Counted from the first letter of the stretch, positions 16,101-50,108 are shown. The stretch is 64,000 nucleotides of DNA from Blasia pusilla (GCA_050084515.1 CM114271.1:15314001-15378000); one strand, 5' to 3'. Made by a program: numbers and translations. Notes: a model not told the origin generated them from the sequence alone.

Positions 16101-16200
16101 CCTTTCCAACCTCTTCTAGAGATTTCTACTATTTTAAAGAGGAAAAAACATGGCAGGAGTAATCAAAATAGTTAGAGTTGCAAGTGAATGAATGATACTT

Positions 16201-16821
16201 TGTCACATCTGAGTAGCCGATAGGCCGAGATCTATCGTGGATAGGGCGTAGGAGCCAGCGGACTATCTTGAGTGTAACTTTGTCCCACGGTGTCGGATGA
16301 GGTTGAGGATAGGTCCATTGCGTCAGGAACGTCGTTTCTGACGACTTTCATGTTGAGGTCTTTTACAGCCGGGTGACTTGTTGACCAGGTCACCCGCCCT
16401 TGGTAACTTGTGCGCGCAGGTTACCAAGGGGAGGGCTATTTTTAGGGGAAGAGCCTTTTGGCTCTTCCCAACCCTATATAAGAGAGGAAGGTGGCTTTCC
16501 TAAGCCATCTTTCTCATGTTGGGCCGTGGGAGCACCTCCCTTGTATGTGTGTGAGATAGGACTAGGGTGCTAGTGTCCGGATTCCTTGATAGCACAGGGT
16601 GGACAAGGCTCGATATATCGATGTAGATTGAGGAGTGGAGTTTTAGGCCGGGTGTGCCGTTTTTACTACTCTTTATTTTTACAGTTGTGTGATCTCCATG
16701 TATATGTATGAGTTGATTTTTGTACATGTGTGGATCGACCCGTGTGTGGGGAAGATCGGTGTTGTGTGGTATAGATGTGACCAGCGATGTATGTTGTGTA
16801 GCGATATGTATGCGCACGACA
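16201..16821 (+). mobile_element. Solo LTR (621 bp)
   Basis: TGTCAC...CACGACA termini, flanked by ACTT/ACTT (4-bp TSD); internal TATATAA box; near-identical to 17520-18136. Confidence 0.9.
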
Positions 16822-17519
16822 ACTTTTTTGCACCCTATGCCATGTAATCATCGCCCTCTTCAACTTACTTAACCATGATTGAGGAACCAAGTCTCCATTC
16901 CTATGTCTACTGTCCTTGAACATCTTTGCAAGGTATTAAAATGAATCTCCCGTCCACTCCACAAGTTTCATCCTCAAGAACATGCATTGAAACAAAACCT
17001 CTCAAACTCCCTCCATAATAATATGATGCCTCACATTCACTCGATTCTTAATCACATGTTCAAAGTTATACTTTAACGAAAGACCATATTTAACAAAAGG
17101 ATCCATTTTTTGGGATTAAAACCATCGTTCCCATTCTAGAACTCGATCAACAAATTTTTTTTGTATGATCAAGTTGAGAAATGGAGTTACTCATCTATCC
17201 TCAGAATTGGATTCAATCCATCTCTTACAATTTTCTCCTTCAATCCATTGCAAAAAGCTATCTCCCCAAACTAATGCATCATGGGGAAAGCATTTTCTAA
17301 TGATTTCTCTCCCCATTTTCGAAATATTAGTGAACAACCTTTACTATCTCTAAACACTTTAAAACTTCCTTACAAATTTCCCAAACCCATCTTGGGTTCC
17401 TTGTGTGTACTATCTATCTTAGACTGAAGTTTTGTGGAACTCAAACATCACCCATAAACACATTGCCCATTACCCTTTCTCTTCCAATGCATAATATAGT
17501 CATGGGCACTTGTTGGCTA

Positions 17520-18136
17520 TGTCACATGTGAGTAGCCGATAGGCCGAGATCTATCGTGGATAGGGCGTAGGAGCCAACGGACTATCTTGAGTGTAACTTT
17601 GTCCCACGGTGTCGGATGAGGTTGAGGATAGGTCCATTGCGTCAGGAACGTCGTTTCTGACGACTTTCATGTTGAGGTCTTTTACAGCCGGGTGACTTGT
17701 TGACCAGGTCACCCGCCCTTGGTAACTTGTGTGCCAAGAGTTACCAAGGAGGGCTATTTTAGGAAGAGCCTTTTGGCTCTTCCCAACCCTATATAAGAGA
17801 GGAAGGTGGCTTTCCTAAGCCATCTTTCTCATGTTGGGCCGTGGGAGCACCTCCCTTGTATGTGTGTGAGATAGGACTAGGGTGCTAGTGTCCGGATTCC
17901 TTGATAGCACAGGGTGGACGAGGCTCGATATATCGATGTAGATTGAGGAGTGGAGTTTTAGGCCGGGTGTGCCGTTTTTACTACTCTTTATTTTTACAGT
18001 TGTGTGATCTCCATGTATATGTATGAGTTGATTTTTGTACATGTGTGGATCGACCCGTGTGTGGGGAAGATCGGTGTTGTGTGGTGTAGATGTGACGAGC
18101 GATGTATGTTGTGTAGCGATATGTATGCGCACGACA
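17520..18136 (+). mobile_element. Solo LTR (617 bp), second independent copy
   Basis: TGTCAC...CACGACA termini, flanked by GCTA/GCTA (4-bp TSD). Confidence 0.9.
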
Positions 18137-34399: not shown

Positions 34400-36490
34400 C
34401 TAAACTCGTCTGTTGAGGGGGAGAATATGACTGTAAACCAACAGACTTTGCCTTCAAATTCCCCAAGTACTAGTGTAGGTCCTAGATTCGTCAATTGAAT
34501 CTGTAAGTCCATGGACGGGAAGAGTACGTATTCAATCTGTTGACACTAGTCAAAGCTCGAATCAAATGTAAGAGGCATCTACCCCTGAAGAACAACTTCG
34601 TAAATAAAGTAGAGTTACACATCCAGTTCATAAATTCATAAATGAAGGTTTCCTTGCGACACATCATGCATATATGATGACTACCCTTCAAGAAGAGGAG
34701 CCAATGGATTGAAGCTATGGAGGAAGAGCTTGCTGCATTAAGACATCAACAGACATGGGAGCTGGCTGATATACCTTTCGATAAGGAAGCTATTATTTGC
34801 AAATGGGTTAACAAAATCAAGCGCAATCACGATGGTACAATTAACAGATACAAAGCGAGATTGGTGGCTAAGGGATATGCACAAGAATATGGCATCGATT
34901 ATTAGGAAATATTTAGTCCTGTTGCAAAGAGGGTGACTACGAGAACATTGGTTGCACTTTCAGTAAGTAAGAAGTGAAGATTACATCACATGGATGTCAA
35001 GAATGCCTTCTTGAATGGAGATCTATACGAGGAGGTATATATGACTCAACCACCTGGATATGAGCATCTTAAGTTTCCATTTTGCGTATGCAGGTTGAAG
35101 AAAGCTCTATACAGGCTCAAACAAGCTCTAAGAGCTTGGTATGGCAAGATTACATACGTCCTACAAGAGTTGGGTTTTAAGGTATGTGATTCTGACTCCT
35201 CATTATATGTCTTGAGAGAACAGGATCAGACGCTTCTCATTGTGTTGTATGTTGACAATCTCCTGATTACTGGGAGTACTAAAGAAATGGTACAACAAGT
35301 CAAGTTGAAGTTACAAGCAGAATTTGATATGAAGGACTTGGAAGAACTCAAGTACTTCCTTGGTATTGAGTTTATCAAGGTTGGAGAGACCAGGTGGTTA
35401 CAACAACAATAATATGCTCTTCATATGCTTTCCAACTATAGTATAACGGCTTGTAAGCCTATCTCTATAGCCGTTGGATCAGAGTGTGAAGCTAAGAGTG
35501 GATGAAGGAGGGTTGCTTGCAGATGCAGGTGTATGGTTGGAAGTTTGATCTATCTAACTATAACCAGGCGAGATTTGAGCTCTGTTGTTGGCCTAGTGAG
35601 CCAATTTAAGCAAGCACCTCGAAAATCTCTCCTTGATGTTGTGAGGAGGATTATGCGATATGTGAAATTCTCTGTTCAATTTGGGCTTCAATTTGAACCT
35701 TCTCCGAGTTTTCAATTATATGGATTCACATATGTTGATTGGGCAGGAAGCGTGTCTGATCGATACTCCACATCCGGTCATTCATTTATTTTGGAAAGCC
35801 CAGCTATAAGTTAAGCTTCAAAGAAGCAATCTACAATTACTTTATCTTCAACAGAGGCTAAGTACAGAGGAGCAACAAATGCAGCATGTGAGGTAGTGTG
35901 GCTTCATTGATTAGTAATTTAGGAGCTAGTGTAATATATGCATACAATATTAGTAGCATCAAGCTTGCTAGTTCCCTGTGTTTCATGCTCGTACAAAGCA
36001 TATTGAGGTGCACTATCATTTTATCAAAGAAAAAGTGCTTGCCGGAGAAATTGATCTTGTGTATATAGGTACAGATCAGCAAATTGCTGACATCTTTACA
36101 AAGGCATTGTCTAGAGATAAGTTTGAGATGTTTGGAAATAATCTAGGCGTTAGAGATATCGATATGAGCTTGAGGGGGAGTATTGAAGATTGAGTTACAA
36201 TCAAACTCATGAAAGACCTGAACTGCTACATTTGGTACTCACACAAAGTAGGGAAGCTTAATCTTGGTTAGTCAATTAAGCGCAATTATCTTAACTAGGG
36301 TTAGTTAATCACAGTTAGTCTATCTCAAGACTATGGTTAAGGTTAGGGTTAGGATTGCTTGTACATACCCTATATAATTGAGAAGGGGACCAACCTCTAC
36401 TCATTCTCCCATTGCAAATTTTGTTCTCCATGGTGGTGTGAATGTGAGAGCCGTTTCCCACCAATTATGCTTCTTTAGCAGTTTTCCACA
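34400..36490 (+). mobile_element. 5'-truncated, degenerate Ty1/Copia element: RT, RNase H, PPT, 3' LTR
   Basis: [50 protein letters not shown] (YVDD mutated), DWAG, FHARTKHIEVHYHF and QIADIFTKAL. PPT TGAGGGGGAG (36171-36180), then LTR 36181-36490. Confidence 0.95.
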
Positions 36491-39400
36491 CGATCGAGCT
36501 GGGATCGAGGTTTTTTAGTTGCTAAGGCGCGACATCAACACTTGTTGTCAGGTTATCCATTTTGGTCTTTTTCCCTGCACGTGTTAGGGATTTCTGAGTA
36601 TTGTGTAGTTATTTGGGGATATTGGGTTTCTTGTAGATATTGAGAGCATCATTGATGTATGGGTTTAGGAGACATAGACCTGTGTGGGATGTCCAAAGTT
36701 GAGGGTGTGTCCTGTTGATGAGATGATAGGATAGTAGACGATTTGCTGCACCATGCCGCTTGTTGCCGCACAGCACACATCTCAGTGAGAGAGTGTAGAT
36801 TGAGTGTCACATGTTGGATTGAGTGATTGAGTGATTGTGTGAGAGGGGCACAAGGATGATCACGGCGTCTTTTCGGGACTTTGAGAGCCGAGATGGTGGA
36901 CCTGAGAGTAGCTCTAGAGGGTTTATCCGGAATGGTGCGAGGTTTCAAGAGTCTCCACATGAGAGACCATCTCGATCTTCTTCTAGGTCATCTTCAGACA
37001 AGGGGGAGAGTGTAGAGGAGTGTGCTAGTGATCCACCGCACACATTGAGTGGTCCTATCAGTTGGACGTACGAGATGGACGATCGGGGTAGAGAACCACG
37101 TAGGTTTTCGGGTACTATAGGCACTATAGAGTTACATGACTTCATTGCAGAGTTTAGGAGTTGGTGTGACTCACAGCGGGCTATGAACTCCAGAGAGTTC
37201 AACCCATTTACAACATGGAATGGAATGTTCCGGAATTTAGAGGGGGCACCCATGGACGATTACCATGAGTTCTCGTAGAGATATGCCTATGAGATTGAGG
37301 CCTAGAGACTCTACTATGACCCACACTATATGTCATGGATTGAGTCGTTTCAAGATGAGAAGGAGGAGTCAGGAGAGGGTTCCTCCATCAGTGATGTTGT
37401 AGGAGGGATGACCCGCACTGGAGCAGCTGCATCGTCTAGTTGAGTTCGTCCCCCGTTCAACCCCGTGGTTGAGTTCATCGGTGAGTTGAGTGCGAGCTAC
37501 CATGGGATACGGACGGAGAAGTTGCGGAGCATCCACGACTTCTAGAGGCGCTCCAGTGAGAGTTTGTGTGAGGCCTACATCCCCTTGCGCTGGTTGATTA
37601 ACGTCACTCACAGGGTGATAGAGGCTCAGGCTATCCAGTCATGGTACGCGATGTTGGACCGGACGCTGCGGACACGTGTGTGAGAGGGGGTGTTTCTTAT
37701 GAACACCTCCCCTACGTTGAGAGATTTTTTATAGGACCGCCAAGAACATTGAGCGCAACATGGCGTAGACCATAGCCACCATGGGTTCTGGGCGAGAGCA
37801 ATCACAATTTCTTGCACCACTTGTGAAGCAACATGGATTTCGAGATAGGTCTGTGGCACCACGAGCTCAAGGAGGATACGAGGAGGCCCTGGCATAGAGC
37901 CTTTATATGCGGCTCAGCAGCAGCCGCCTATGATTACTTTTTGATCATGTGGTAGAGCCCATCATTAGCGCGATTGCACTCGTCAAGGTCATGGTTGCGT
38001 GCCTCAACATGGAGGAGGAGATGGTGCTGCACCAAGAGGTTATCAGTGTGACTATTGTCAGAGGTATGGTCACACACGCGCCAAGCGTTTCAGCTTGCAC
38101 CTTGAGTTACGTTTGGACCGAGGGCCAAAGAGGGCACCACAGCGAGTTGCCAGTCTGGGTGGGCCTAGGAGGTCGTACACTAGGTGGTCCCGTCGGGGGA
38201 AGAGGAGTTGGACTCGCCTGAGGGGGTGGTGGAGCTCCTTGTAGAGAAGGTAGAGTCCCACCACCTAGACGTGTTGAGGGAGATGCCTGGCGTGAGGCTA
38301 GGATGGCTGCTCAGATACAGCAGCTACAGCAACAGATTGCCCCTATGGCATTGAGTTTACCCGATGCCGGATTCGTGGCATCGACCCTTATGGAGCCACC
38401 AGAGATATGGAGGATCTTGGTTGGATGTGCTAGGTTGCCTAGATGGAGGCCACCGCAGTTGTTACGCGTGGAGCAGCCACAGAGTTGGATCCACAGCAAG
38501 GGGAAGCTAGGAAACAGACCAGGCTTCCTCAATCCTTCACGTTTTCTGAGAAGATGAGGACCCCATCGATGGGTCTTGATTAGAGATCCCGGAGAGTTGG
38601 TGATGTTGTTGGTGTGCAGGCACAAAGGGCGATGGGAGAAGCGAGTGCAACGACTCCTATTGCTGATGCTCAGGAGGAGCATGTGTCGAGCACGTTGTTG
38701 GGGGCGGCCACCGTTGTGTACTACGCTCCTTTATTTTCTGCTTCCGATGTTATGACATTGGGAGGTATGCTCGTCGAGGTTTTTCGGCTGGCCGCTACGC
38801 TATTTGAGCGTGGAGTTGGAGTTCTTCCATCATGTTCTGAGATGATTGTAGAGGAGGTGATGGACCTACCCTTGGAGCTAATGCTTGGGCCGTCCACGTC
38901 AGATTCATGGCAGGCTACGACTGCTAGGATGGCAGAGATGCCTGCTAGACCCACGATAGAGCGTGCCATGGCTTCTCCTGGTGTTGTTTTGCTGGATAAT
39001 TGGTGAGAGGTCTTCCAGTTGGAAAGTCCTGGATTCAGGAGAGCAACCCCTCATGTTGGGGAAAGCAACATTCAGAGGATTGGGCTTAACGAGAGCCGAT
39101 GTGGAGCATTGTCCATTCCGGATACAGACATCCTTGGGTAGAGCAAGTACCACATAGTATATCACCCGACAAGAGGTCGTGGTGAGGATTTGCCGCGGAC
39201 ATCCTACAGATGCACTGATCGACCGCCGACCAGGAGAGATGGCGACCTTAGCAGCATTTTGCAACGCCATCACTTGGCCTAGTGATTTGATTGAGGGACA
39301 TGTCCATGCAGAGGATACTTCCGTTCATGACATTGCTATGGAGAAGAGAGTCCTAGTCGCCGCATCAGTCCATGGAGGAGAGGTGCCGCTTTGGTGCTTG

Positions 39401-42400
39401 ACTAAGGAGCTTCCACGCTTAGCCACTGAGCATGTGTAGACCACGTGAAGCGAGACGTTCGCACCAGAGCGTGACGGGTCAGAGGAACCCGAGGTAGCCA
39501 CGAGTGCTACTATGATCCCTTTGGACACTACCCCGATTGTGTGGTGTATTCGGGATATTCGTGTGTTGGATCTCTTTGGAGGGATCACCACTGGGTTAAT
39601 TGTTGTTTTGCAGGCAAGAGTACGCATGCAGTAGTACCTGTATGTGGAGATTGATGATGTTTCCAGGCGTGCTTCACTTCACCATATGGCGTAGTTACGC
39701 CTCTATTTTCCCAACTTGTTGTCTGCGTCTGCTATCCAGGGTTACTAGAGTTCCCTACCGAGGGACATTTCATTGTTTGGGGCACAGGACTTGGAGCAGG
39801 TAGGGACCATAGACTTGGTCATTTTTGGTTGGCCATGTCAAGGCCAATCAAGTGCTGGACGGGGTAGCGGATTAGTTGACTTGCAGTCCAAGTTATTTTG
39901 GGAGATGATGCGGATCTTGCGATATTTACAAGTGCATACTCTCGTTCTCCAGCATACATTCTGGAGAATGTGCCAATTTCGGGCGATTCAATGTCTCGCG
40001 TGGTGACGAGTGCACATTAGGTGCGCGCATGGATCGGCTCGATAGTGTTGTTGGATGCGGTGAGTGTAGGTTCATGAGCACATCGCCTACGTCTTTGGTG
40101 GACCAACTTGATGCCACATGAGGTTTTATGGAGGGCCTATGCGAGAGTGGAGCGCCCCTCCGATTTGTCGGTGGATTATATTTTGGATCCAAGTCGTCAA
40201 TCACAGGCAATGAGGCACGATGATCGACGACCGTTGATTGTGGTCAACAGGATTGGCATGCCACGGGCAGCCTTTCCGACATTAGTGAGTCTTCCTGCTT
40301 CATATGCATTCAAGGAGGTCGGACCTGGCTTGTTTGGGAGCGAGAGCGAATGATTCCCCACACGAGTGTCGGCAATATCATCACTATCACAGACATCACG
40401 ATGTCATGTCTTGGGTCAGGTGATGGACCTGAACTGCTTGACATGGATTTTCAACTTAGGAGTAGCTGAGTAGCGTCGTTTGCAGACGTGACAGATCACA
40501 GTTGTTGCGTTGGTGAGCCCCATGCCTATCGAGATAGTTTAGGCAGTGGTTGGGGGCGAGATCCGAGGAGATCGACACACCAGGGATGTTCGAGAGAGAC
40601 ATCCTTGGACTTCTTGGGATTTTTTGCATGTACACGAGGAGATAATAGCCACCGCATCGAGCGTGGTTCTGGGTACTGCACGTAGAGGAGATCCAATTTT
40701 GCAGTTGGATGTAGGGGAGTAGCCGAGTGCTACTGTGCGAGACGGGGTTGCACCATAGCAACCACCTACACCCGCGCGGAAGAGTCCTACCATAGTCACG
40801 ATGGAGACTCGGGAGCCAGATATGGCCCCTAAGTTGACAGGAGGAGAGCGGCGCCCGATACACCAGTTCCTTAGGAGTTATAGGAGTTGTTTTGCATTTA
40901 GCAAGCATGATTTGGGTACGCTGAAGGGTCCAGGGATCCGCATTGAGTTGTCGAGTGACACGTGGATCTTCCGGCGACCATATAGGTACAGTGACATGGA
41001 GAGGGCTTTGATTTGTAGAAGGAACCACGACTTGGTTGGAGTAGGACTAGTGGAGATGTTGCATGGAGAGTATGCATCTGCCATTGTCATGCTTGCCAAG
41101 AAGGATGTGCATGGCAGCTGTACGGATAGGCGGATATGTGGAGATTATCGACCTATCAATCGGCAGACAAAGTTTGATAGGTATGCCATGCCCACCCCTG
41201 AGGAGATCTTTGATGCGATTGGGCATGCAAAGGTATTCAATTCATTGGATTTGCAAGCTGGATATCACCAACTGCCTATTAGATTGAAGGATAGGCAGAA
41301 GATGGCATTTTGGGGCATCGATCCTCACCGAAAGGATTGTTTGTACTTGTGGCAATTCTTACCATTTGGGTTAAAGAACGCCCCGACTGAGTTTTAGAGG
41401 GTCATGGATAGGATCTTGGCAGGTATGGATTTTGCTAGGTGTTATATTGATGAAATCGTAGTCTTTAGCGGCACAGTTGAGGAGCATGAGCGACATCTAG
41501 AGGAGGTGTTCCGACGATTGCAATTACATGGGCTGAAGCGACATCCAAGCAAGTGCAAGTTCTTCTACAAGCAGATTGAGTACCTGGGTCATACAATATA
41601 TCCACAGGGCCTTGGTGTGCAGTAGACGAAGATAGAGGCTATTTCACGCATTCCACGCCCTACAGATGTGAGTTGAGTTCGTGCATTCATGGAATTGGCA
41701 AACTTCTATCAGCGGTACGTCAAGGGTTTCAGTTCGATTGCAAAGCCACTAACCTTGCTGACCAAGGTGGATCAGGAATGGAACTGGGTGGATAAGCAAG
41801 AGAGAGCATTTCAGCTGCTCAAGGACAAATTGACATCCGCGCCCATATTGAGGAGACCAATCAAGGGGCATCTTTTCTAGTTGCATACCGATTGGAGCAT
41901 GTTGGGGCTTGGAGCCGTGCTCACCTAGCATGACAATGATGGTAGAAAGTTCGTGATGGCTTGCGCTAGTCGCTCGAACAACATTGCAGAGGCAAATTAT
42001 AGTTTGTATGAGGGTGAGTGTTTGGCTGCGGTGTGGGATGTCACACATTTCAGGTGTTATTTATTCGGCAACCCCTTTACCATCATTACTGATCATCAGC
42101 CACTTAAGTGGTTGATGGAGTCTGACAAGCTTACAAGGAAGCGTGCAAGGTGGGCTCTTTTGTTGCAAAAGTATGACTTCCAGGTGGTGCATAGACCTGG
42201 GACGCTCAACCAAGATGCAGATGGTTTGAGCCATAACCCATGCCCAAATCAGCGAGATGCAACAAGAGCTCGTTGGCATGGTGAGAGTGATGAGGAGTTG
42301 GTGCCAAGATGGCACGCGTCAGCCTATTTGAGCTTGTTGGCTATGGAGAGCCAGATTGCTAAGACTTCGATGGCGAGATCTGATGGAGAGTCCTTAGATC

Positions 42401-44104
42401 GAGAGGCTTGTGAGGAGACGACATGTGGCCGAGACATTCACGACGATGGAGCGGTCTTGGAGTACCCGCGTACTAGCAGCGCCGCGAGCACAGTGGATGG
42501 TAGAGAGCGGGATCGGATCCTACAGCGAGCCAAACGGTTTCGGTGAGAGACGACATATGTGTTGCGAGTTTGGGAGGATGATAGAGTGCGTATAGTGCCT
42601 CATCTTTCGCAAAGAGCACGCTTGGTGCGTCATGCCCACGAGGAGTTGGATCATTTTGGAGTGAAGCGGACGTACACCTTGCTCTAGATACAGTATTGGT
42701 GGCGAGGCATGCAGACTGATGTTCAGCAGTTTGTTGCCAGGTGCATGTTGTGTGATCGAGTCCGAGCATTGTTCAATGCTCCGACTCGAGAGTTACATCC
42801 ACTTTCGATCATGGATTTAGGTTATAGATGGAGTTTGGATTTTGCAGGACCTTTGCCTTTGACGGAGCGCCATAGTCGTTATGTGTTGGTGATGGTCGAG
42901 CACTTCTCGAAGTGGATAGAGTTGGTTGCATTGCCTCACAAAGAAAGTGAGGGAGTAGCATATGCCTTCCTAGATTGAGTGCTGAGTCATTACGGCACAC
43001 TAGCTCATGTGTTGACAGACCAGGGTAGAGAGTTTCACGGAGAGTTTCAGGCCTTGTGTGATTAGCCGCTGATCGACCACCGTACTACTTCGCGAGATCA
43101 TCCTGAGGCCGATGGACTAGCAGAGAGGGTTGTGCAGATGGTAAAGAGAGGATTACGCAAGTATGGCTTGTAGAGAGGTCACCTAGGAGATTGGGACCTT
43201 CAAATACCGTGGTTGGCGATGGGATAAAGATTCAGCAGGCAGACATCCTTAGCGTCTTTCTCACCGTACTTGCTTTATGGCCGAGAGCTAGATTTACCTT
43301 CGGCCATTCGTCAAGATGTTGGTGAGGTGTTGAATCTTAATGACCCTGATGTATGGATGCGAGCATGTTCTCAGAGGGCTCATTTATTTCGGAAAGTGAT
43401 GCCCATGGCGTTTGAGAACTTGGCAACTCTGCAGCATCGGGATACGTTGCGGTATGCGACTATTTAGGGAGGTAGTTATCGACCTACTATCTAGAGGTTT
43501 CATCAGGGAGACTATGTCTACTTGCAGCGGACAGCACCCACGACGTTGGATGTGACTGCAAGGCGCACCATTTTGAGAGTGTATGAGATTTTGTCATCCG
43601 GTGTTCTCTTATTGGAGGGACGCAATGGTATGGTTTGGAAGGACCACGTGCGTAATTTTGCGCCATGTCATCTTACAAACATTGATGGTACACTTGATCC
43701 GAGCTAAGCAGTAGTTCTGGTAGGCTTGCGATGTATCATTGAGAGGGCTTGGGAGAAGGAAGGGGGTATACCTCAAGGAGAGAGAGCTTGAGAGCTGATT
43801 CTCTCTTTGTTGAACCTCTTGGCATGAGGCGGCAGAGCTGCGGTCTTGCTTACCTTGTGAGTGTAACCCAAGCCTCTCATTAGGAGAGTGGATTTGGTTT
43901 AACATTGAGAGAGACATGTGAGAGTGCACACATTTGAGAGCTATGGTGTTGAGAGAGATTGGATCTACTTGATTTAATTGGAGATATTTTGGTACTTCTT
44001 GTCTCGTTTTTTGGGTGCCATGAGTTAGCATGGGATCGTGCGTGTTTGGGTGTATGTTTGGTGATAATGATGTATGTTGTGTAGTGATGTGTATGAGCAC
44101 AAAA
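36491..44104 (+). mobile_element. Degenerate Ty3/Gypsy LTR retrotransposon carrying a C5 DNA methyltransferase domain (gag-PR-DNMT-RT-RNaseH-INT); 5' LTR not seen, 3' LTR partial
   Basis: gag from about 36856 with zinc knuckle CDYCQRYGH; protease LDSG (about 39030); RT RICGDYRPIN, SLDLQAGYHQ, LPFGLKNAP, YIDE; RNase H HTDWS...EGECLA...TDHQPL; integrase HEELDHFG...CMLC, WSLDFAGP, TDQGREF, GLAERVV. The RT-RH-INT order is the Gypsy order. Confidence 0.95.
39557..40470 (+). pseudogene. DNMT3/DRM-like C5 cytosine methyltransferase catalytic domain inside the Gypsy pol region
   Basis: Motifs in canonical order: I IRVLDLFGGITTG (39557), II YLYVEIDD, III LPRDI, IV IDLVIFGWPCQGQSSAG (PC at 39833-39838), VI YILENVP (39964), VIII AHRLRLWWTNL (40081), IX ERERM..FP and X VLGQVMDLN (40411). 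Several stops and frameshifts. Confidence 0.9.
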
Positions 44105-44752
44105 ATATCCACGGACATGCCGCCCGAGTATCCGTAGCCCGTATCCGAGCCCGCACTGGTTTTGTGGCCTGCGGCCAAGCCCTCAAGGCGGGCCTAGAGC
44201 TCGCATGTGCGGGATTTGATCTCGCCCAATGCGGGCCAAAAAATCGGTGCGAGCTCAGCCAGCCTCGGTACTCGCGAAGGGCAAGGTTGCACGCGGACAA
44301 AGTTTGTGTCCGCATACATATCCGTGTAGGCCCGGGTATCCACGGCCCACACCTGACCACGCACTCGAGCCAGTTGCATAGACCCAGTCTGACAAAGCTC
44401 GCACCCCTTGTGGCTTGGCTCTCATTGGGCAGGCCTCAGGCCTGCCCAATGGGGTGCCATCCCACCCTGTGGGACTGCCGCGGGCCCCGTAACGCGTCCA
44501 GGCTCCGTCAACCCGGGTCTACTCGGCGAGCTATAGGGCGGGCTTACGTGCGGGCTCGGGTGTAAGCCAAGCATGTGCGAGGACTTTTCCATTTTCGTGC
44601 AACCTTGGCCACAAGCTTGGCGGGCTCCAATTGCGGGCTCAAGGGTAGGACGGGGGTACCCAAGCCGCACGAACATGTCCGTCCTAGGGAGGGACATAAG
44701 TCCGCAAACATGGACATGTCTGCGGAGACAGATTTGTCTGTTTGCAACCCTG
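44105..44752. mobile_element. hAT-type MITE sequence, apparently nested (inner copy about 44282-44607)
   Basis: CAAGGTTGCAC at 44282, GTGCAACCTTG ending at 44607 and TGCAACCCTG ending at 44752; the family's GGACATGTCC/GGACATAAGTCCG subterminal motifs. Confidence 0.65.
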
Positions 44753-47752
44753 GTGTCACTGCCAAGAAACCATCATAAATTTTTGGGAAATTTATTTTTC
44801 CACACCGAGGGCTTTTCTTCGCGACCAATTTTCCTTTTTCTCATTTTGAGTTCCTTTTATGGTAGTAGCCCTTAGATAGATTGAGAACTTCTCATGTTTA
44901 GGCAATTGCTTCATTTGATTATGAATCAAGAATTCCAATGGTGATATTTGAGAGCCATCAAATTTGTATGGTGGGAAATCCAAAACTTAGAAAGGATATA
45001 TAGAAAATATTTCAATTGAATGAAGAAGGAATCGCGTTCCTTATACAATAGATGGATAACCTCATTGAAGTTTAATAGTACAAAATTTCTAATGGAAGTT
45101 AGGTATTAATTGAAGATTTTGCAATTGACATGCCTTCTCTTTGGTAGAGTTGGGGAAAAAATGTTGAGAAGCTTGTTTGCGAGAAAAGGAGTGTTTACGG
45201 GTTCTTCGTGGGAACCATGCATATTCCCCACATCCATCTCAGGCCCTAAACTCAAATACCATTCACGTCTCACCAACCCATGTTTGACTATTTATCCTCC
45301 AAGATGACTTGGGGGAGTCTAATGGTAGACTCCACTCATTTTGACTTCCCCAAACACAACTTAAATTCTTGTCTTGCATTTTTTGAGTCTCAAGGCTAAC
45401 TCATGTTTTGACTCCCACCATTTGGCGTCTCATGGTTGTTTTGCCAACCTTCGTGTTTCACAACTAGTTTTATGGCATCTTGCCCAACTTGACTACTCTC
45501 GACTTCCTTGCTACTTGTCCTTGATTGGAAACCTAAGGGTGTGTCCCCTATTTTTCCTTGCCATGTTTCCCCATGAGCGACTGCACCTCCTTTCTCTTAA
45601 GGTTGGTCTCGAGATATGGGCTCGTCTTGACTACTATTAGTCCCGCAATAGGTTTCGCCATTCATACTAGTCTTGCAACTAGCTAGGTTTCCACTTTGTT
45701 GGGTACTACCAAGATCTCTCTTCTTTTTATCAACAATCATGACTCACTCCTTATGTGAGCACCATAGACTTAGCTATTTACAATGATATGGGATCTATTC
45801 ACTTATTTATAGCAAAGCATATTATGGTTATGATCCTATGTATCTTGGTTAATAACTATATATAATTTTGGTATCCTTCTTTAAGTCATGTGGATGATGA
45901 AAAAAACAACTTTATAGTTATATGTTTGCATACAGTAAATTGTATAAGTGCGTCACATGGAAATGTATGTACTAGACTACTAGTAGTACTAGGGATTTTG
46001 GGTCCATTACGAGTCCAATTATTTCCAATAATGGATACTTGGCAAGTCCATTATGATTTCCACTTTGCAAATCCATTGTGTACAAGTCTTTTGTGGCTTT
46101 AGATAGCTTTATAAATTGCCATTGGTTTATGAGTTTGAAAAGTCATTTTTCCATTTCGATTGCCATGACTCCCATTAAGCTTACAATAGACTTACAAACA
46201 TGATCGCAAGTTAGACTCGTAAATTACTGCTTCTAAAAATCACACATTATAAGTATGGGGAGTTGTAGTGAAGTTGCACGCAATTGCAACTTGCCAGCCA
46301 GTTGCAAGTTTTTTGAACATATATTTTACAAGTTTTTTGTAAGTCCTATATCTCACAAATAGTCGTAGGTGAGTCTCACAAGTCAAAAATTTGGCCATAC
46401 ATTCCCCTTTCGCCTCCAAAGCACTCTATTTTTGCTTTTCCTCCTAACTTTCCAAAAATCCTCTCCTCGGTTTGTTACTATTTTCTTTCTATAGTAGAGC
46501 TAGGTCTTGGGTAGAAATTTTTCAATGTTGAAGAAACTGTGGATAAGAAAAATTTATAGTAGTTTTTTTTTCCAAATTATTCATTATAAACTATAAGAAG
46601 TAAAGGATAAAAAAAAAGCAGCAAAGCCGTATCTGAGAAAACTTGGAATGATTCAAATCCCCCTTGAAAAATTGAATTATAGACCTAAAAATAACTCCAA
46701 CTTGAGCAAAATAGGAGCCAAAAAAATAGATTACAATTTTTGAAGAACAATACTCTATTAGTCCATTGAAAGTGTCTTGCGATCCAAAATTACTACTTGC
46801 TATTTTACAACAATTTTGTGAAAGTTTTATGAATAAGATTTGAATTAATTTTTTGAATTATTTGTGACCACATAGATTCGTAGATCTGCAAGTCAAATGC
46901 AAGTATCGTGCAAGTGTTTGGCATTTGAATTGCAATTGACTATGCACGTGACAACCTAAGACTTTAAATTTTAATTATTAAATAAATTACATCATTCAAT
47001 CACACAAAAGAATGATGGACTAAATTACACCCATGATCTGAAATTGCATGCACCTTATTTACAAGATATGGTGTTGACATGATAAGAATGAGAATAAGAA
47101 AAAGTAAACCGATTGAAAGGATCTAATTAGAAGCATGCGATGATTGCTATAACTCAAGTTATGGTATGACCAAGGAAAATACCATTGCAAATTTCATGTG
47201 AGTCCCCAAGTTTAATCTTTTTTTTTTTAAAAGGAAAAGGAGGACCACATCTACAGCTTCACAAAGATAGATCTTATCCCATTCGGCAATTTTGAGTCAT
47301 CCTCATATTTATTTTGTAATTTATTACAAAAAAAATTTAAAGCTCAAAAACTGGTATGTGGCTCTCATGGGATGGGAAACTCCATCCCCTAAACCCTCCA
47401 ACCCTCCATCTCCTTAACTCTGCCAAAATAGAGTGTCAGGAGTTCTAAAAATACTGAAAAAATTATTCTAAAATAATTAAAAAATAACTAAAAATAAAAT
47501 AAAATTGATATTTTTGGAATCAAATGTGGTACTGGTTATGTGTACGCTCGTTCCTTCCTAAGAGGTGTTGTGGCACTACTGAAAATTTTTATTTAAAAAA
47601 CAAACTATATTTGAGGCCATAAATAATATTTATATATTATTATTAGAGAGTGCTTTCTTGATATACAATACATATCTACTAGCCACGTTCAAAGAAAATA
47701 TATTTCCCATATTACAGGTAGAAAAAAATTTAAATTTACATGCAATAATTCC

Positions 47753-48434
47753 TTCACTAATATCTTTTCATTTTCAATATAGTTCCATTACCTACACATA
47801 AGTCTTCACTAATATCTTTTCATTTTCAATAAAGTTCAATTATCTACACATAAGTCTTCACTAATCTATATTATTATGGGAGAGTGCCTTCTTGATTTGC
47901 AAACACTTATGTGTTTGACACGTGGCAACTAGGTAGAAAAAAATGTTTCACATGTTACGGGCAGCAAGAAAAAAATTTAAATTTATGTAGAGCATTATTA
48001 ATCTCTTCCCTTCACGGGCTATACACTAGCTCTTCGAACATTTTTTATTTTCCTTGCATCGCACGACACCTCATCTATATTATTATGGGAGAGTGCCTTC
48101 TTCATTTGCAAGCACCTATCTGCTTGACACGTGGCAACTCGACAAGGAGAAAATATTTCACATGTTACGGGAAAAAAAAAATTTAATTTATGTAAAATAT
48201 CATTAATGTCTTCCCTTCATGGACTATACATTTATTCTTCAAACACTCTTTTTATTTCTCGTGCATTACACGAACATTTTATTATTAAAAAAAATTTCAA
48301 TATAATTCCATTATCTACACATAAGTCTTCACTAATATCTTTTTATTTTCAATATAATTTCATTATTTACACATAAGTCTTCACTAATATCTTTTTATTT
48401 TGAATATAGTTCCATTATCTACACATAAGTCTTC
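47753..48434. repeat. 52-bp tandem array interrupted by two head-to-tail mini-Helitron copies (47865-48029, 48074-about 48235)
   Basis: Unit TTCACTAATATCTTTT..TTTTCAATATAGTTCCATTATCTACACATAAGTC starts at 47753, 47805, 48328 and 48380. The Helitron reads A|TCTATATTATTATGGGAGAGTG...CACGGGCTATACACTAG. Confidence 0.8.
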
Positions 48435-50108
48435 GCGGTAGATGTTGTAGAGCTCATGAGCACTCGTCGTGACAAAGCCGATGTCTAGAGGTAGAACCGA
48501 ACGGGCCCTCAAGCAATACTCGGTTACGGCGATCTGCAGACCTCTCACATACGTACACGACTGACTATGAGCGCGTCGCGTAATTGTGTCTTATTGACTG
48601 CCAGTCTTTACGAAAGTTCAATTTCTCCAGATCCGCATTTCGCCGCTTTGTAGACGGCAGCAAGGATGATATGAGTTGCAGCGGTTTCACAGCACACGAA
48701 AGGGAAAAGGCGATCACTATTTAGAAGATCCATGAAGAGACGGGAGGAGGAGGAGGAGGAGGAGATGATGAACTCTCGGTGTGAAGCTAGACAGCGAATA
48801 CCAATAATATACGCGGATCATGTGTAATGACTTCTTACCGTCCCCAGTAACGGGGAATTTCATTGGTTAGTGGATATGGCGGGGACGACCACCAGCAGTG
48901 GGAACCTCTGATGCAATGTTCTTGAATGCGAATATGCGCCTTGGAAAGTAATCTCGGAAATGGCAGACATATGCGAATCTCCTTTCCTCGGACCGTACTA
49001 TTGAGCATTTCGAGTGCTTCTGAATCGTTTCCTGCACTTCCATGAAAATGGCATGAATCCGTCTTCCAGTTCACGGTTCATTTTTCAAGTTCCTGAATGT
49101 CCATACAACGCTAATTATGCCCCTTAATTATGTGCCCTACAGCAGTACCTCTGGTTCTTAACGAAAAGATGACAACGAGGACCGGCTGTTTTCCTAGACT
49201 TGTGTTTTCAGTCGGCGGATCCAAGAGCGTAGGTACAGACTGTCAGAAACATAAAGTTCTCAGCGACAAGGATGAAATAAAAGTATCGCATGCACGACTG
49301 CGCTACATGAAATCTAAAAGCGTCTGGTCGAGAGTTAAGTGTCATCTCCTTGACGTTTCTTCGTTGTCTGAAGGCTGGCTTCCTTAGAATGAATCTATAA
49401 AGAGTTCCGCTGACCAATGGCACCCACGGACATTAATCGCACCGGATCCTTTGATCCAAACAGGCAAGATGTGGAGAGCATAGGCTGAAATTGAACTCAA
49501 AAGCACTCTCTGTATTCCTGAATCGCCGGCGAAGCACTCTCCCTACTTCATTGGCGTGAACCGATGACTTCAGAGATCCAAGTGGTTGACAACAGAAAAG
49601 CAGGTATGTGTGACTCTCAAGGTATGGTATCGTTTCCTTCGCGAGGAAATTATGATCATAAACGGGTTCCCGGTTCGGAGTTTCAACATTATTCCTCCAC
49701 GACCAGTTGATATAAGAGTTTGGAAAACTCAATTTATAGGCCCGGTTCTCCTCCTGGCTCTCCGGAAAGTTCATCTCGATACTACTTGGTCTGGAAGAAA
49801 ACTCAGGAAAATCTTGTAGAATGCCGTGTGTAGGCGAGCTACGAGGACTAAAGGGATACTGGGAATCCTTGGAGAAGTCCGTTCTAAATCAGTGGCTGCA
49901 GCGCTGGACGGGATGATATCCTGGACAATGACTGCCGACCCGAGTGCGTTGGTGTACGCTCCAGGAGTGAGTCAAGTGCTTGGACAATCCGTAAAGGACC
50001 AAAGATAATGTACGAGACGGAATATGTGGAACCAAAATCTGGGCCTCTCACTTGGAATGTTTGATTAGGAGCATGGAGGAAGAAAGCAATAATACGAGTT
50101 CGGAGACT

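Follow-up and report, generated by a model that had tools for sequence, protein, structure and literature searches.

A decayed Gypsy-type retrotransposon of Blasia pusilla with a DNMT3-like methyltransferase domain in pol, and its relatives in bryophytes

Layout and decay of the element

The window, i.e., the whole stretch of 64,000 nucleotides of Blasia pusilla that was analyzed (CM114271.1:15314001-15378000), contains a retrotransposon copy whose parts are listed in Table 1. A Pfam scan of the window placed RVT_1, RT_RNaseH, Integrase_H2C2, and rve consecutively on one strand, and by tblastn RT-RH-INT proteins of 1000 aa align colinearly to it with 59-65% identity. The Gypsy-type assignment made in an earlier note on this DNA is borne out by this pol domain order and by the colinearity with relatives. 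The RT is up to 79% identical to protein P0159 of Calypogeia fissa, and the nearest relatives of the RNase H are liverwort sequences. Elsewhere in the window ten large ORFs gave zero Pfam families, and tRNA and Rfam scans of the window returned 0 and 0 matches.

Table 1. Coordinates of the element and of the methyltransferase motifs, counted from the first letter of the window.
Feature	Position	Strand	Evidence or remark
5' leader	36620..37089	+	family homology starts ~36605-36640; no recognisable 5' LTR
gag-like region, frame 1	37090..38685	+	tblastn with Marchantia P0216
Protease-like region, L-D-S-G at 39029-39040	38686..39214	+	tblastn with P0183, P0184, P0216
Linker, poorly conserved, from protease-like region to DNMT	39215..39520	+	within frame-2 HSPs to relatives (tblastn)
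DNMT3-like C5 cytosine methyltransferase domain	39521..40470	+	PF00145, motifs, PDB matches
Motif I, LDLFGGITTG	39566..39595	+	frame 2
Motif II, YLYVEID	39635..39655	+	frame 2
Motif IV, GWPCQGQS	39827..39850	+	frame 2
Motif V, LFWEMMRIL	39893..39919	+	frame 2
Motif VI, ILENV	39958..39972	+	frame 1
Motif VIII, RLRLWWTN	40084..40107	+	frame 1
Motif X, LGQVMDLNCLTWI	40411..40449	+	frame 1
Reverse transcriptase (RVT_1)	40759..41625	+	PF00078 E 3.9e-7 and 2.3e-13, two ORF pieces
RNase H (RT_RNaseH / RT_RNaseH_2)	41677..42546	+	PF17917 E 6.4e-24, PF17919 E 3.9e-10
Integrase: H2C2 zinc domain, rve core, C-terminal part	42688..43740	+	PF17921 E 2.9e-6, PF00665 E 1.1e-4 (below its cut-off)
3' tail, family's highest read depth, ends ...CA at 44100	43741..44100	+	read depth, sequence

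The 5' half of the element was traced with proteins of Marchantia, of which P0216 aligns by tblastn through its residues 9-656 to 37090-39117 (35% identity, E 3e-84). The gag-like region holds a decayed zinc knuckle, C-X2-C-X4-H-X4-R, at 38047-38088, where the consensus of the relatives has CCHC; Retrotrans_gag is found in three of ten relatives, and Pfam gag families gave no match in the window. Pfam protease families likewise gave no match in the window itself and weak ones in the relatives (Asp_protease_2 in 1/10, E 0.0012; gag-asp_proteas in 2/10, E 0.094), and the identification of this region as a protease is weakly supported.

The limits of the element can be seen in the depth of WGS reads of the source organism, mapped to the window at at least 80% alike. 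At the left end single-position depth rises from 405 at 36604 through 1067 at 36639 to 1471 at 36670, and at the right end it drops from approximately 3390 in the bin 43808-44174 to approximately 9 in the next bin; past 44100, 1670 reads continue into unlike sequence. The limits first proposed, 36491-44104, therefore hold at the right end, which the depth drop puts at approximately 44100, and not at the left, which lies rather at 36605-36640. Searches by three routes found no LTR pair around the element, a result which applies to the window copy only, and the best local alignment between the two element ends scored 41 (30 +/- 5, maximum 51, in 200 shuffles). The 3' tail could be part of a 3' LTR, for which no partner was found.

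The copy is dead, as the earlier note had it: there are 48 in-frame stops along the whole reading path and two frame changes. One of these, near 39026-39030, takes the path out of frame 1 into frame 2, and many WGS reads of other copies have extra letters at 39030. The CpG observed/expected ratio does not differ between the element (0.69) and the whole window (0.71), and CpG depletion thus does not set the element apart. It was also observed, as a suggestive point only, that CWG is lower in the element (0.83) than in its flanks (0.96 and 1.22).

The methyltransferase domain

The methyltransferase (DNMT) domain has no intron and lies on the same strand as pol, with RT, RNase H, and integrase downstream, which agrees with its first description. 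Its placement between protease and RT can be kept as far as the RT is concerned, which it precedes; on the upstream side the neighboring region is only protease-like, and weakly so. The C5-MTase motifs I, II, IV, V, VI, VIII, and X occur in order, named according to the C5-MTase motif scheme, whereas III and IX, which had also been claimed, were not separately pinned down. The motif order is non-rearranged, unlike that of plant DRM, in that motif I comes before IV, VI, VIII, and X. Translation runs in frame 2 up to approximately 39937 and in frame 1 from 39940, and this one frame change is accompanied by six in-frame stops (39632, 39692, 39746, 40018, 40075, and 40351). A shift to the third frame near 40330-40400 ("ERERM...") was considered and ruled out, as the relatives align in frame 1 throughout 39940-40671.

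Three Pfam families had been suggested as a check on the original reading. PF00145 (above its cut-off) and RVT_1 were recovered, whereas rve stayed below its cut-off. The PF00145 match (E 2.8e-9 to 4e-9, 36.7-37.3 bits, cut-off 22) spans motifs IV-V only, and the C-terminal half of the domain has no match in Pfam or PDB. When the N-terminal half was compared by phmmer with 1.84 billion representatives, 1146 matches with E<=1e-3 were obtained, 195 of them with E<=1e-10; a word-based protein search with the 85-aa DNMT ORF, at longer lengths, returned 69 candidates, none with E<=1e-3. By tblastn, Marchantia P0216 covers the window DNMT with E 4e-112, and identity to bryophyte proteins is 47-67%. 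Scores of this order go well beyond chance.

That the enzyme is DNMT3-like, as the earlier note proposed, is supported by three comparisons. The N-terminal half has 33 PDB matches, 29 to DNMT3A/B/C and four to DRM2; a profile of ten relatives also matches DNMT3A/B/C in 29 of 33 cases (best E 1.3e-12); and the nearest three Atlas structure clusters are all DNMT3A (TM 0.74 by query).

A high-copy family with relatives in bryophytes

WGS depth in the DNMT bins was 1653, 1814, and 1931, compared to 1530-1680 in gag, 2720-3720 from RT to integrase, and 1.4-27 in the flank, and the DNMT was not skipped by any of the best 15 of 106 read joints. The depth from RT to integrase, 1.5-2 times that of the DNMT, implies that part of the wider family may lack the DNMT or may carry one less than 80% alike. 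In all three RNA runs depth over the DNMT bins was 31-60 for first mates on the minus strand versus 0.7-4.1 on the plus strand, which indicates sense RNA, assuming the usual stranded-library convention. Most of the RNA reads are less than 90% alike to the window copy, so that the transcripts come from other copies. The family is thus high-copy and still transcribed.

Database matches place relatives of the family in land plants. The DNMT-bearing named relatives among 32 matches include 20 proteins of Marchantia polymorpha, two of Calypogeia fissa, and two of Sphagnum, and the suspicion in the earlier note that such a lineage, persisting or re-entered, is present in land plants is supported by these proteins with the same DNMT. 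Marchantia P0183 and P0184 have the order protease-like, DNMT, RT, and RNase H, and P0216 is colinear with the window from gag to DNMT (37090-40623); it should be noted that the Marchantia proteins are gene models and could be spliced predictions. In the family gag is followed by a protease-like region, the DNMT, RT, RNase H, and integrase, to which a C-terminal PHD finger is added in relatives. For RT, RNase H, integrase, and DNMT alike every one of the nearest named relatives is from a bryophyte, identity to proteins of Calypogeia and Riccia reaching 79-83%, and the more distant ones come from algae (Closterium, Mesostigma, and Scenedesmus). In a quick tree of 79 rows, built from search matches and without named host DNMT3, DRM, MET1, CMT, DNMT2, or DNMT5 references, the window groups with Marchantia, Calypogeia, and Sphagnum in a clade of 18 rows (SH-aLRT 97). 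The family belongs to a clade that occurs in bryophytes, with remoter relatives in streptophyte and green algae.

These data bear on two rival explanations. The first is that only the window copy holds a piece of a host DNMT3 gene, acquired in a single capture or nested there by chance. This copy is indeed rearranged, with frame changes at both edges of the N-terminal half and without LTRs, but the depth of the DNMT (1650-1930) equals the gag level and far exceeds that of the flank, no intron is present, and the Marchantia proteins show the same order and share the DNMT with those of Calypogeia and Sphagnum. The DNMT is not a one-off insertion, the alternative named in the earlier note, and we find single capture scarcely credible. 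The second, that the contig derives from an alga or from contamination rather than from a land plant, might be prompted by the algal affinity of the more distant relatives. It is nevertheless very improbable given that the nearest relatives are bryophytes throughout, that the family ranks with the most abundant sequences of a whole-genome run of the same species, and that the flank is covered as well.

Among the relatives the DNMT is the best conserved region, with an identity of 0.92 within Marchantia and 0.70 in other pairs, compared to 0.45 in gag, 0.61 in the protease-like region, and, between genera, 0.49 in the linker. In all ten relatives compared, motif I has F-G-G, motif IV P-C-Q, and motif VI E-N-V without exception, and R-x-R...W-T-N is nearly invariant. 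These alignments indicate that the DNMT is under constraint in the relatives.

To our knowledge, enzyme activity has been shown for no Gypsy-borne DNMT, and conservation might also reflect a non-catalytic module, kept for binding DNA or recruiting partners in the manner of DNMT3L. DNMT3L has lost its catalytic motifs, and the same would be expected of a dead enzyme; the catalytic P-C-Q and E-N-V and the SAM-binding F-G-G of the relatives are on the contrary invariant. While the low Pfam scores of even the intact relatives' DNMT (approximately 35 bits) and the negative outcome of the only published assay of a Gypsy-borne DNMT3 (PMC5890265) could be read in favor of such a module, we regard it as unlikely.

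Possible roles and comparison with known systems

A PHD finger (PF00628) was found in 12 of 43 RNase H relatives. In P0167 it was confirmed at residues 983-1027, and the tblastn alignment of this protein to the window ends at residue 985 of 1033, corresponding to position 43740. Neither a PHD finger nor a chromodomain is present in the window copy, and as the alignment stops where the PHD finger of the relatives begins, this copy has lost it. Given its 48 stops and two frame changes, and lacking both an LTR pair and a PHD finger, the window copy alone is uninformative on function.

It is almost certain that a DNMT3-like domain, constrained and family-wide, is part of pol in a land-plant Gypsy lineage. 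Taken as a whole, the stretch from approximately 36620 to 44100 on the plus strand is in all probability an ancient and no longer active member of a high-copy Ty3/Gypsy-type family with such an integral domain. The mechanism considered most likely, self-methylation as conceived by de Mendoza et al. (2018), is put forward tentatively and with rather less than even confidence. In this scheme the DNMT would be translated as part of Pol and would travel together with RT and integrase; it might methylate the new DNA of the element itself, or the fresh insertion, and the PHD finger on the integrase may read histone tails and so influence target choice.

DNMT3-type enzymes are DNA de novo methyltransferases, and the DNMT adjoins the RT in the polyprotein, which locates it at the site of cDNA synthesis. 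Both points argue against the main competing view, namely that the family-wide DNMT does something other than methylate the element's own cDNA: it could, under the guidance of the PHD-integrase, act on host chromatin around the site of insertion and so create a heterochromatic safe haven, it could act on RNA, or it could interfere with silencing by the host. The combination of a DNMT with a histone-reading PHD finger on the integrase of relatives fits this view, and the published account, which lists several possible roles, could not demonstrate that the Gypsy type is active (de Mendoza et al., 2018; PMC5890265). We consider it possible, though somewhat less so than self-methylation.

The fullest version of our preferred reading, self-methylation, describes a bryophyte Gypsy lineage that is undescribed, abundant, and still transcribed, whose enzyme is active on its own cDNA or insertions, and which descends from a streptophyte-algal Gypsy-DNMT3 element; in this complete form it must be called doubtful. 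Were the enzyme active and the descent algal, de novo methylation by transposons would have come through the water-to-land transition, and an active Gypsy DNMT may contribute to the methylomes of bryophytes, with Marchantia polymorpha as a genetic model host. The presence of such elements in Marchantia polymorpha, Calypogeia, and Sphagnum by itself carries the question of why a transposon should import its own silencing enzyme to land plants for which transformation, knock-outs, and methylome maps are available. Counts of bryophyte "DNMT genes" include transposon copies, given that 20 of the 32 matches are Marchantia gene models.

Gypsy-DNMT elements of liverworts and mosses seem not to have been described before. 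No report of a land-plant retrotransposon DNMT was found in the literature searched; the supplements of PMC5890265 (Supplementary Data 1, Figs 13-14) and PMC12344493 (Fig. S3) might already list copies. Retrotransposon-borne DNMTs were described from dinoflagellates and one charophyte alga, and the idea of "self-methylation" was put forward in that account (de Mendoza et al., 2018; PMC5890265). The closest known system is KnitGypsy-Dnmt3 of Klebsormidium nitens, likened here by its published description, in which an intronless, non-rearranged Dnmt3-type domain lies inside the Gypsy Pol of a streptophyte, and, as in our family, key catalytic residues are kept and there are signs of constraint (PMC5890265). 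A yeast assay of the KnitGypsy-Dnmt3 domain showed no de novo methylation, a result called inconclusive by the authors (PMC5890265). The host of KnitGypsy-Dnmt3 is a charophyte, whereas those of the window family are bryophytes; "fewer copies" are reported for K. nitens (PMC5890265), as opposed to hundreds to approximately a thousand-fold over the flank in the window family; and a PHD finger follows the integrase in relatives of the window element. The named matches did not include a K. nitens protein.

A related DNMT in Gypsy pol, with approximately 35-42% identity to pieces of the window, is found in the Scenedesmus "pol" KAF8056149.1 and many unnamed metagenome proteins. In these Scenedesmus-type elements the DNMT is placed between RNase H and integrase, instead of before the RT as in the window element, and their DNMTs form a separate 32-row clade (SH-aLRT 98). 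SymbioDIRS-Dnmt3 and SymbioLINE-Dnmt of Symbiodinium are likewise retrotransposon-borne DNMTs, and the former, which is Dnmt3-like, methylated CG de novo in yeast (PMC5890265). They differ in being tyrosine-recombinase DIRS and LINE elements of a dinoflagellate host, independently acquired according to the authors (PMC5890265). The EpiLTRs of Cymbomonas and Euglena resemble our family as LTR elements that pair a DNMT with a chromatin-reader domain, and are described as combining the adenine methyltransferase DAM with a chromodomain and a DNMT that is sister to DNMT4 (bioRxiv 10.64898/2026.05.21.726589). The window family has instead a DNMT3-like enzyme, a PHD finger in relatives, and no DAM. 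In chromoviruses, which are Gypsy elements, the integrase is followed by a chromodomain, and the relatives of the window element are similar to them in that the C-terminus of the integrase is fused to a histone reader, this reader being, however, a PHD finger (PF00628) and not a chromodomain.

The decayed copy and its methyltransferase domain

A single retroelement spans about 36620-44100 on the + strand. Its coding path, which was traced through the alignment of relatives' proteins to the window, makes two frame changes and crosses 48 stop codons (32 TAG, 14 TGA and 2 TAA), six of them within the DNA methyltransferase (DNMT) domain. No LTR pair was found at its ends by direct-repeat searches, and when the ends were aligned to each other the top score lay within the range of shuffled sequences. 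The copy is dead, as the earlier note had held; the stops, the frame changes and the missing LTR pair all bear this out. Pfam recognises RVT_1 (E 3.9e-7 and 2.3e-13), RT_RNaseH (E 6.4e-24) and Integrase_H2C2 (E 2.9e-6) in the window, together with rve at E 1.1e-4, below the Pfam cut-off. The zinc knuckle reads C-X2-C-X4-H-X4-R, and the relatives' alignment stops at 43740, exactly at the start of their PHD finger (residues 983-1027 of P0167, a relative's RT-RNase H-integrase protein; PF00628, E 2.1e-9). Positions 43709 and 43763 are points at which reads from other copies diverge from the window.

Coding path and methyltransferase motifs of the window copy
Feature	Position	Strand and frame	Basis
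gag-like and protease-like parts	37090 to about 39030	+, frame 1	relatives' alignment
protease-like end, linker, methyltransferase N-half	about 39026 to 39937	+, frame 2	relatives' alignment
methyltransferase C-half, RT, RNase H, integrase	39940 to 43740	+, frame 1	relatives' alignment
LDLFGGITTG	39566	+	window translation
YLYVEID	39635	+	window translation
GWPCQGQS	39827	+	window translation
LFWEMMRIL	39893	+	window translation
ILENV	39958	+	window translation
RLRLWWTN	40084	+	window translation
LGQVMDLNCLTWI	40411	+	window translation

The earlier note had seen methyltransferase motifs in order in the pol path and called the domain DNMT3-like, and both readings hold. The translated motifs follow the canonical order and the PF00145 search that it had proposed returned a match above the cut-off (E 2.8e-9; 37.3 bits against 22), which together confirm the DNMT. 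F-G-G, P-C-Q and E-N-V, which we take to be motifs I, IV and VI, are invariant in an alignment of ten relatives, and R-x-R...W-W-T-N is nearly so. When the 146-residue N-half, the piece before the internal frame change, was run with X at its three stops in phmmer against 1.84 billion representatives, 1146 proteins matched at E<=1e-3 and 195 at E<=1e-10; the Marchantia polymorpha protein P0216 aligns to the window DNMT at E 4e-112. A chance origin of the likeness is excluded. As to kind, the N-half matched 33 distinct PDB sequences (29 DNMT3A/B/C and 4 DRM2) and the C-half matched none. A profile built from ten proteins of the bryophyte clade matched 29 DNMT3A/B/C sequences in PDB (best E 1.3e-12) and, far more weakly, two "DNA methyltransferase" chains, M.HaeIII and a tRNA methyltransferase. 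The predicted Atlas model of the Calypogeia fissa protein P0221 has three DNMT3A clusters as its nearest structural neighbours (TM 0.74 by query). Unlike in DRM, the motif order is not rearranged.

At places where other copies' reads differ from the window, 341 A>G and 309 T>C stand against 187 C>T and 162 G>A, the window being more often A/T; with the stops rich in TAG and TGA, this would fit decay through deamination of methylated cytosines. CpG observed/expected is 0.69 in the element, no different from 0.71 in the whole window. Between 36000 and 44000 the coding strand has a strong G-over-C skew (+0.17 to +0.23, with neighbours about 0), and the CpA excess (1.44) is larger than that of TpG (1.16).

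Directly upstream lies a Ty1/Copia pol fragment (34978-36193, +; RVT_2, E 6.9e-43), whose family has a read depth of about 520-585; 36101-36467, at about 1080, could be its 3' LTR. Elsewhere, direct repeat blocks at 16198-16746 and 17517-18061 (218 nt at 98% and 300 nt at 100% identity, 1315-1319 bases apart) may stem from recent tandem duplication or belong, as LTRs, to a very small element. Two arrays with a unit of about 52 bases (47700-47911 and 48275-48486) are separated by roughly 470 bases, and another repeat pair, of 86 nt, sits in the gap. Pfam returned nothing for the window's longest open frame (301-1245, +; 314 aa), which lies in sequence of 50% GC.

Abundance and transcription of the family

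Reads from one whole-genome run and three RNA runs, which bear the same species label as the runs containing this stretch, were mapped to the window at a likeness threshold of 80%, with about 1% of the DNA run used and both mate directions summed for DNA depth. This depth was 1.4-27 in the right flank, 1530-1680 in gag, 1990-2290 in the protease-like region, 1653, 1814 and 1931 in the three DNMT bins and 2720-3720 from RT to the 3' end. The DNMT thus matches gag in abundance and exceeds the flank by hundreds to about a thousand times, which rules out a one-off capture, one of the refuting cases set by the earlier note: the domain is family-wide. The higher depth over RT and integrase could be due to stronger conservation or to cousins that lack the DNMT. 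None of the 15 best-supported of 106 joints in the DNA reads skips the DNMT. At its internal frame change (39937), 437 of 851 reads show a one-base length difference from the window, so the break is absent from many other copies; the window copy is also far from the bulk of its family, since 130226 of 162188 mapped DNA reads are <90% alike to it.

Coverage of the element in each of the three RNA runs is strongly biased to one strand. RNA depth with the first mate on the minus strand was 31-60 in the DNMT bins (0.7-4.1 on plus) and about 100-225 from RT to integrase (1-16 on plus), which under the usual stranded-library convention indicates sense RNA. Since the majority of RNA reads fall below 90% likeness to the window copy, the transcripts derive from other copies. 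A joint that leaves out 1079 bases of RT-RNase H (40926-42006), whose two sides are separated by eight other letters and whose ends are non-canonical (GG..TT), occurs only in the three RNA runs (6, 13 and 2 reads); transcripts of an internally deleted subfamily are a more likely source than splicing.

Relatives and the methyltransferase tree

A search with the RNase H ORF returned 43 proteins at E<=1e-10. The named matches are from liverworts (four Calypogeia fissa, one Riccia sorocarpa and four Marchantia polymorpha), apart from three distant Dictyostelium proteins. PF00145 is present in 3 of the 43 by precomputed Pfam and a DNMT in 7 by blastp with the window pieces, and 12 of the 43 have a PHD finger (PF00628) downstream of the integrase (e.g., P0163, P0167, P0171, P0176 and P0181), which the window copy is without. 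Two Marchantia proteins, P0183 (MARPO_0091s0058) and P0184 (Mp_2g26090), repeat the window order of protease-like part, DNMT, RT and RNase H, and are 52-59% identical to the window pieces in the DNMT and 56-70% in RT. With the DNMT of P0184 as query 32 proteins matched: 20 from Marchantia polymorpha, 2 from Calypogeia fissa, 2 from Sphagnum (S. troendelagicum and S. fallax) and 8 unnamed. The land-plant lineage of DNMT-bearing Gypsy elements that the earlier note had suggested is thereby borne out. Within these proteins conservation is highest in the DNMT, with an identity of 0.92 within Marchantia and 0.70 in other pairs; in those other pairs gag reaches 0.45, the protease-like part 0.61 and the linker 0.49.

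The phmmer matches show two layouts. The DNMT stands before RT, as in the window, in liverworts, Closterium strains and metagenome ORFs, one of which (P0149) holds DNMT, RT, RNase H and integrase within 2188 aa; in Scenedesmus "pol" proteins (3225 and 4177 aa) and many metagenome ORFs (e.g., P0047, P0061, P0088 and P0102) it comes after RNase H and ahead of integrase. Related DNMTs are also present in Mesostigma. Among 87 proteins covering at least 80% of the DNMT profile, RT follows the DNMT in 18, the protease-like part alone precedes it in 13, RT precedes it in 20, integrase comes directly after it in 6, and 30 have none of these neighbours. A tree of 79 rows (IQ-TREE "quick", SH-aLRT support only) was built from these after removal of five partial sequences, three duplicates and one sequence with an over-long envelope, with the protein P0015 trimmed and the window added with X at its break. 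In this tree a clade of 18 rows (support 97) unites the window with 12 Marchantia rows, Calypogeia, Sphagnum and three unnamed rows; throughout the clade the DNMT follows the protease-like part or is followed by RT. Separate clades are formed by the rows with RT ahead of the DNMT (32 rows, support 98) and by the Closterium rows. Since the tree holds neither named host DNMT3, DRM, MET1 or CMT nor a Klebsormidium nitens row, it is silent on the source of capture and on kinship with KnitGypsy-Dnmt3, the Gypsy-borne domain of that charophyte.

Possible function and known systems

The domain lies in the pol path, is family-wide, stands in a region transcribed in sense and is conserved together with its catalytic residues; a non-catalytic role appears improbable. 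We tentatively consider self-methylation the likeliest of the possible roles. The DNMT would be translated as part of Gag-Pol, be either cut free by the protease or left fused ahead of RT, be packaged into the particle alongside RT and integrase, and methylate double-stranded cDNA or the fresh insertion, while the PHD finger of the integrase may bind histone tails and so steer integration. Action on host chromatin or RNA instead seems somewhat less likely. The self-methylation idea is that of de Mendoza et al. (2018; PMC5890265), in whose yeast assays, as described in the sections covered, DIRS-borne Dnmt3 domains methylated CG de novo and the Klebsormidium Gypsy domain did not, a result that those authors called inconclusive.

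A transposon DNMT is not mentioned in the parts covered of the plant LTR classification of Neumann et al. (PMC6317226; term search), the Marchantia methylome paper (PMC5784723), a Marchantia review (PMC9516144) or the moss DNMT3 paper (PMC6453930). Our literature search, with supplements and subscription papers outside its scope, found no report of a retrotransposon DNMT in a bryophyte or any land plant, and an earlier mention is possible. A 2026 preprint, in the part covered, names "streptophytes (Gypsy-DNMT3)" among known cases (10.64898/2026.05.21.726589). Chromoviruses carry a chromodomain after the integrase, whereas relatives of the window element have a PHD finger (PF00628) at the same place. 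The window element is a Gypsy element with a DNMT3-like domain in land plants, and the closest known system, from the portions covered of PMC5890265, is KnitGypsy-Dnmt3; its family has a high copy number and is transcribed, and relatives combine the domain with a PHD finger.
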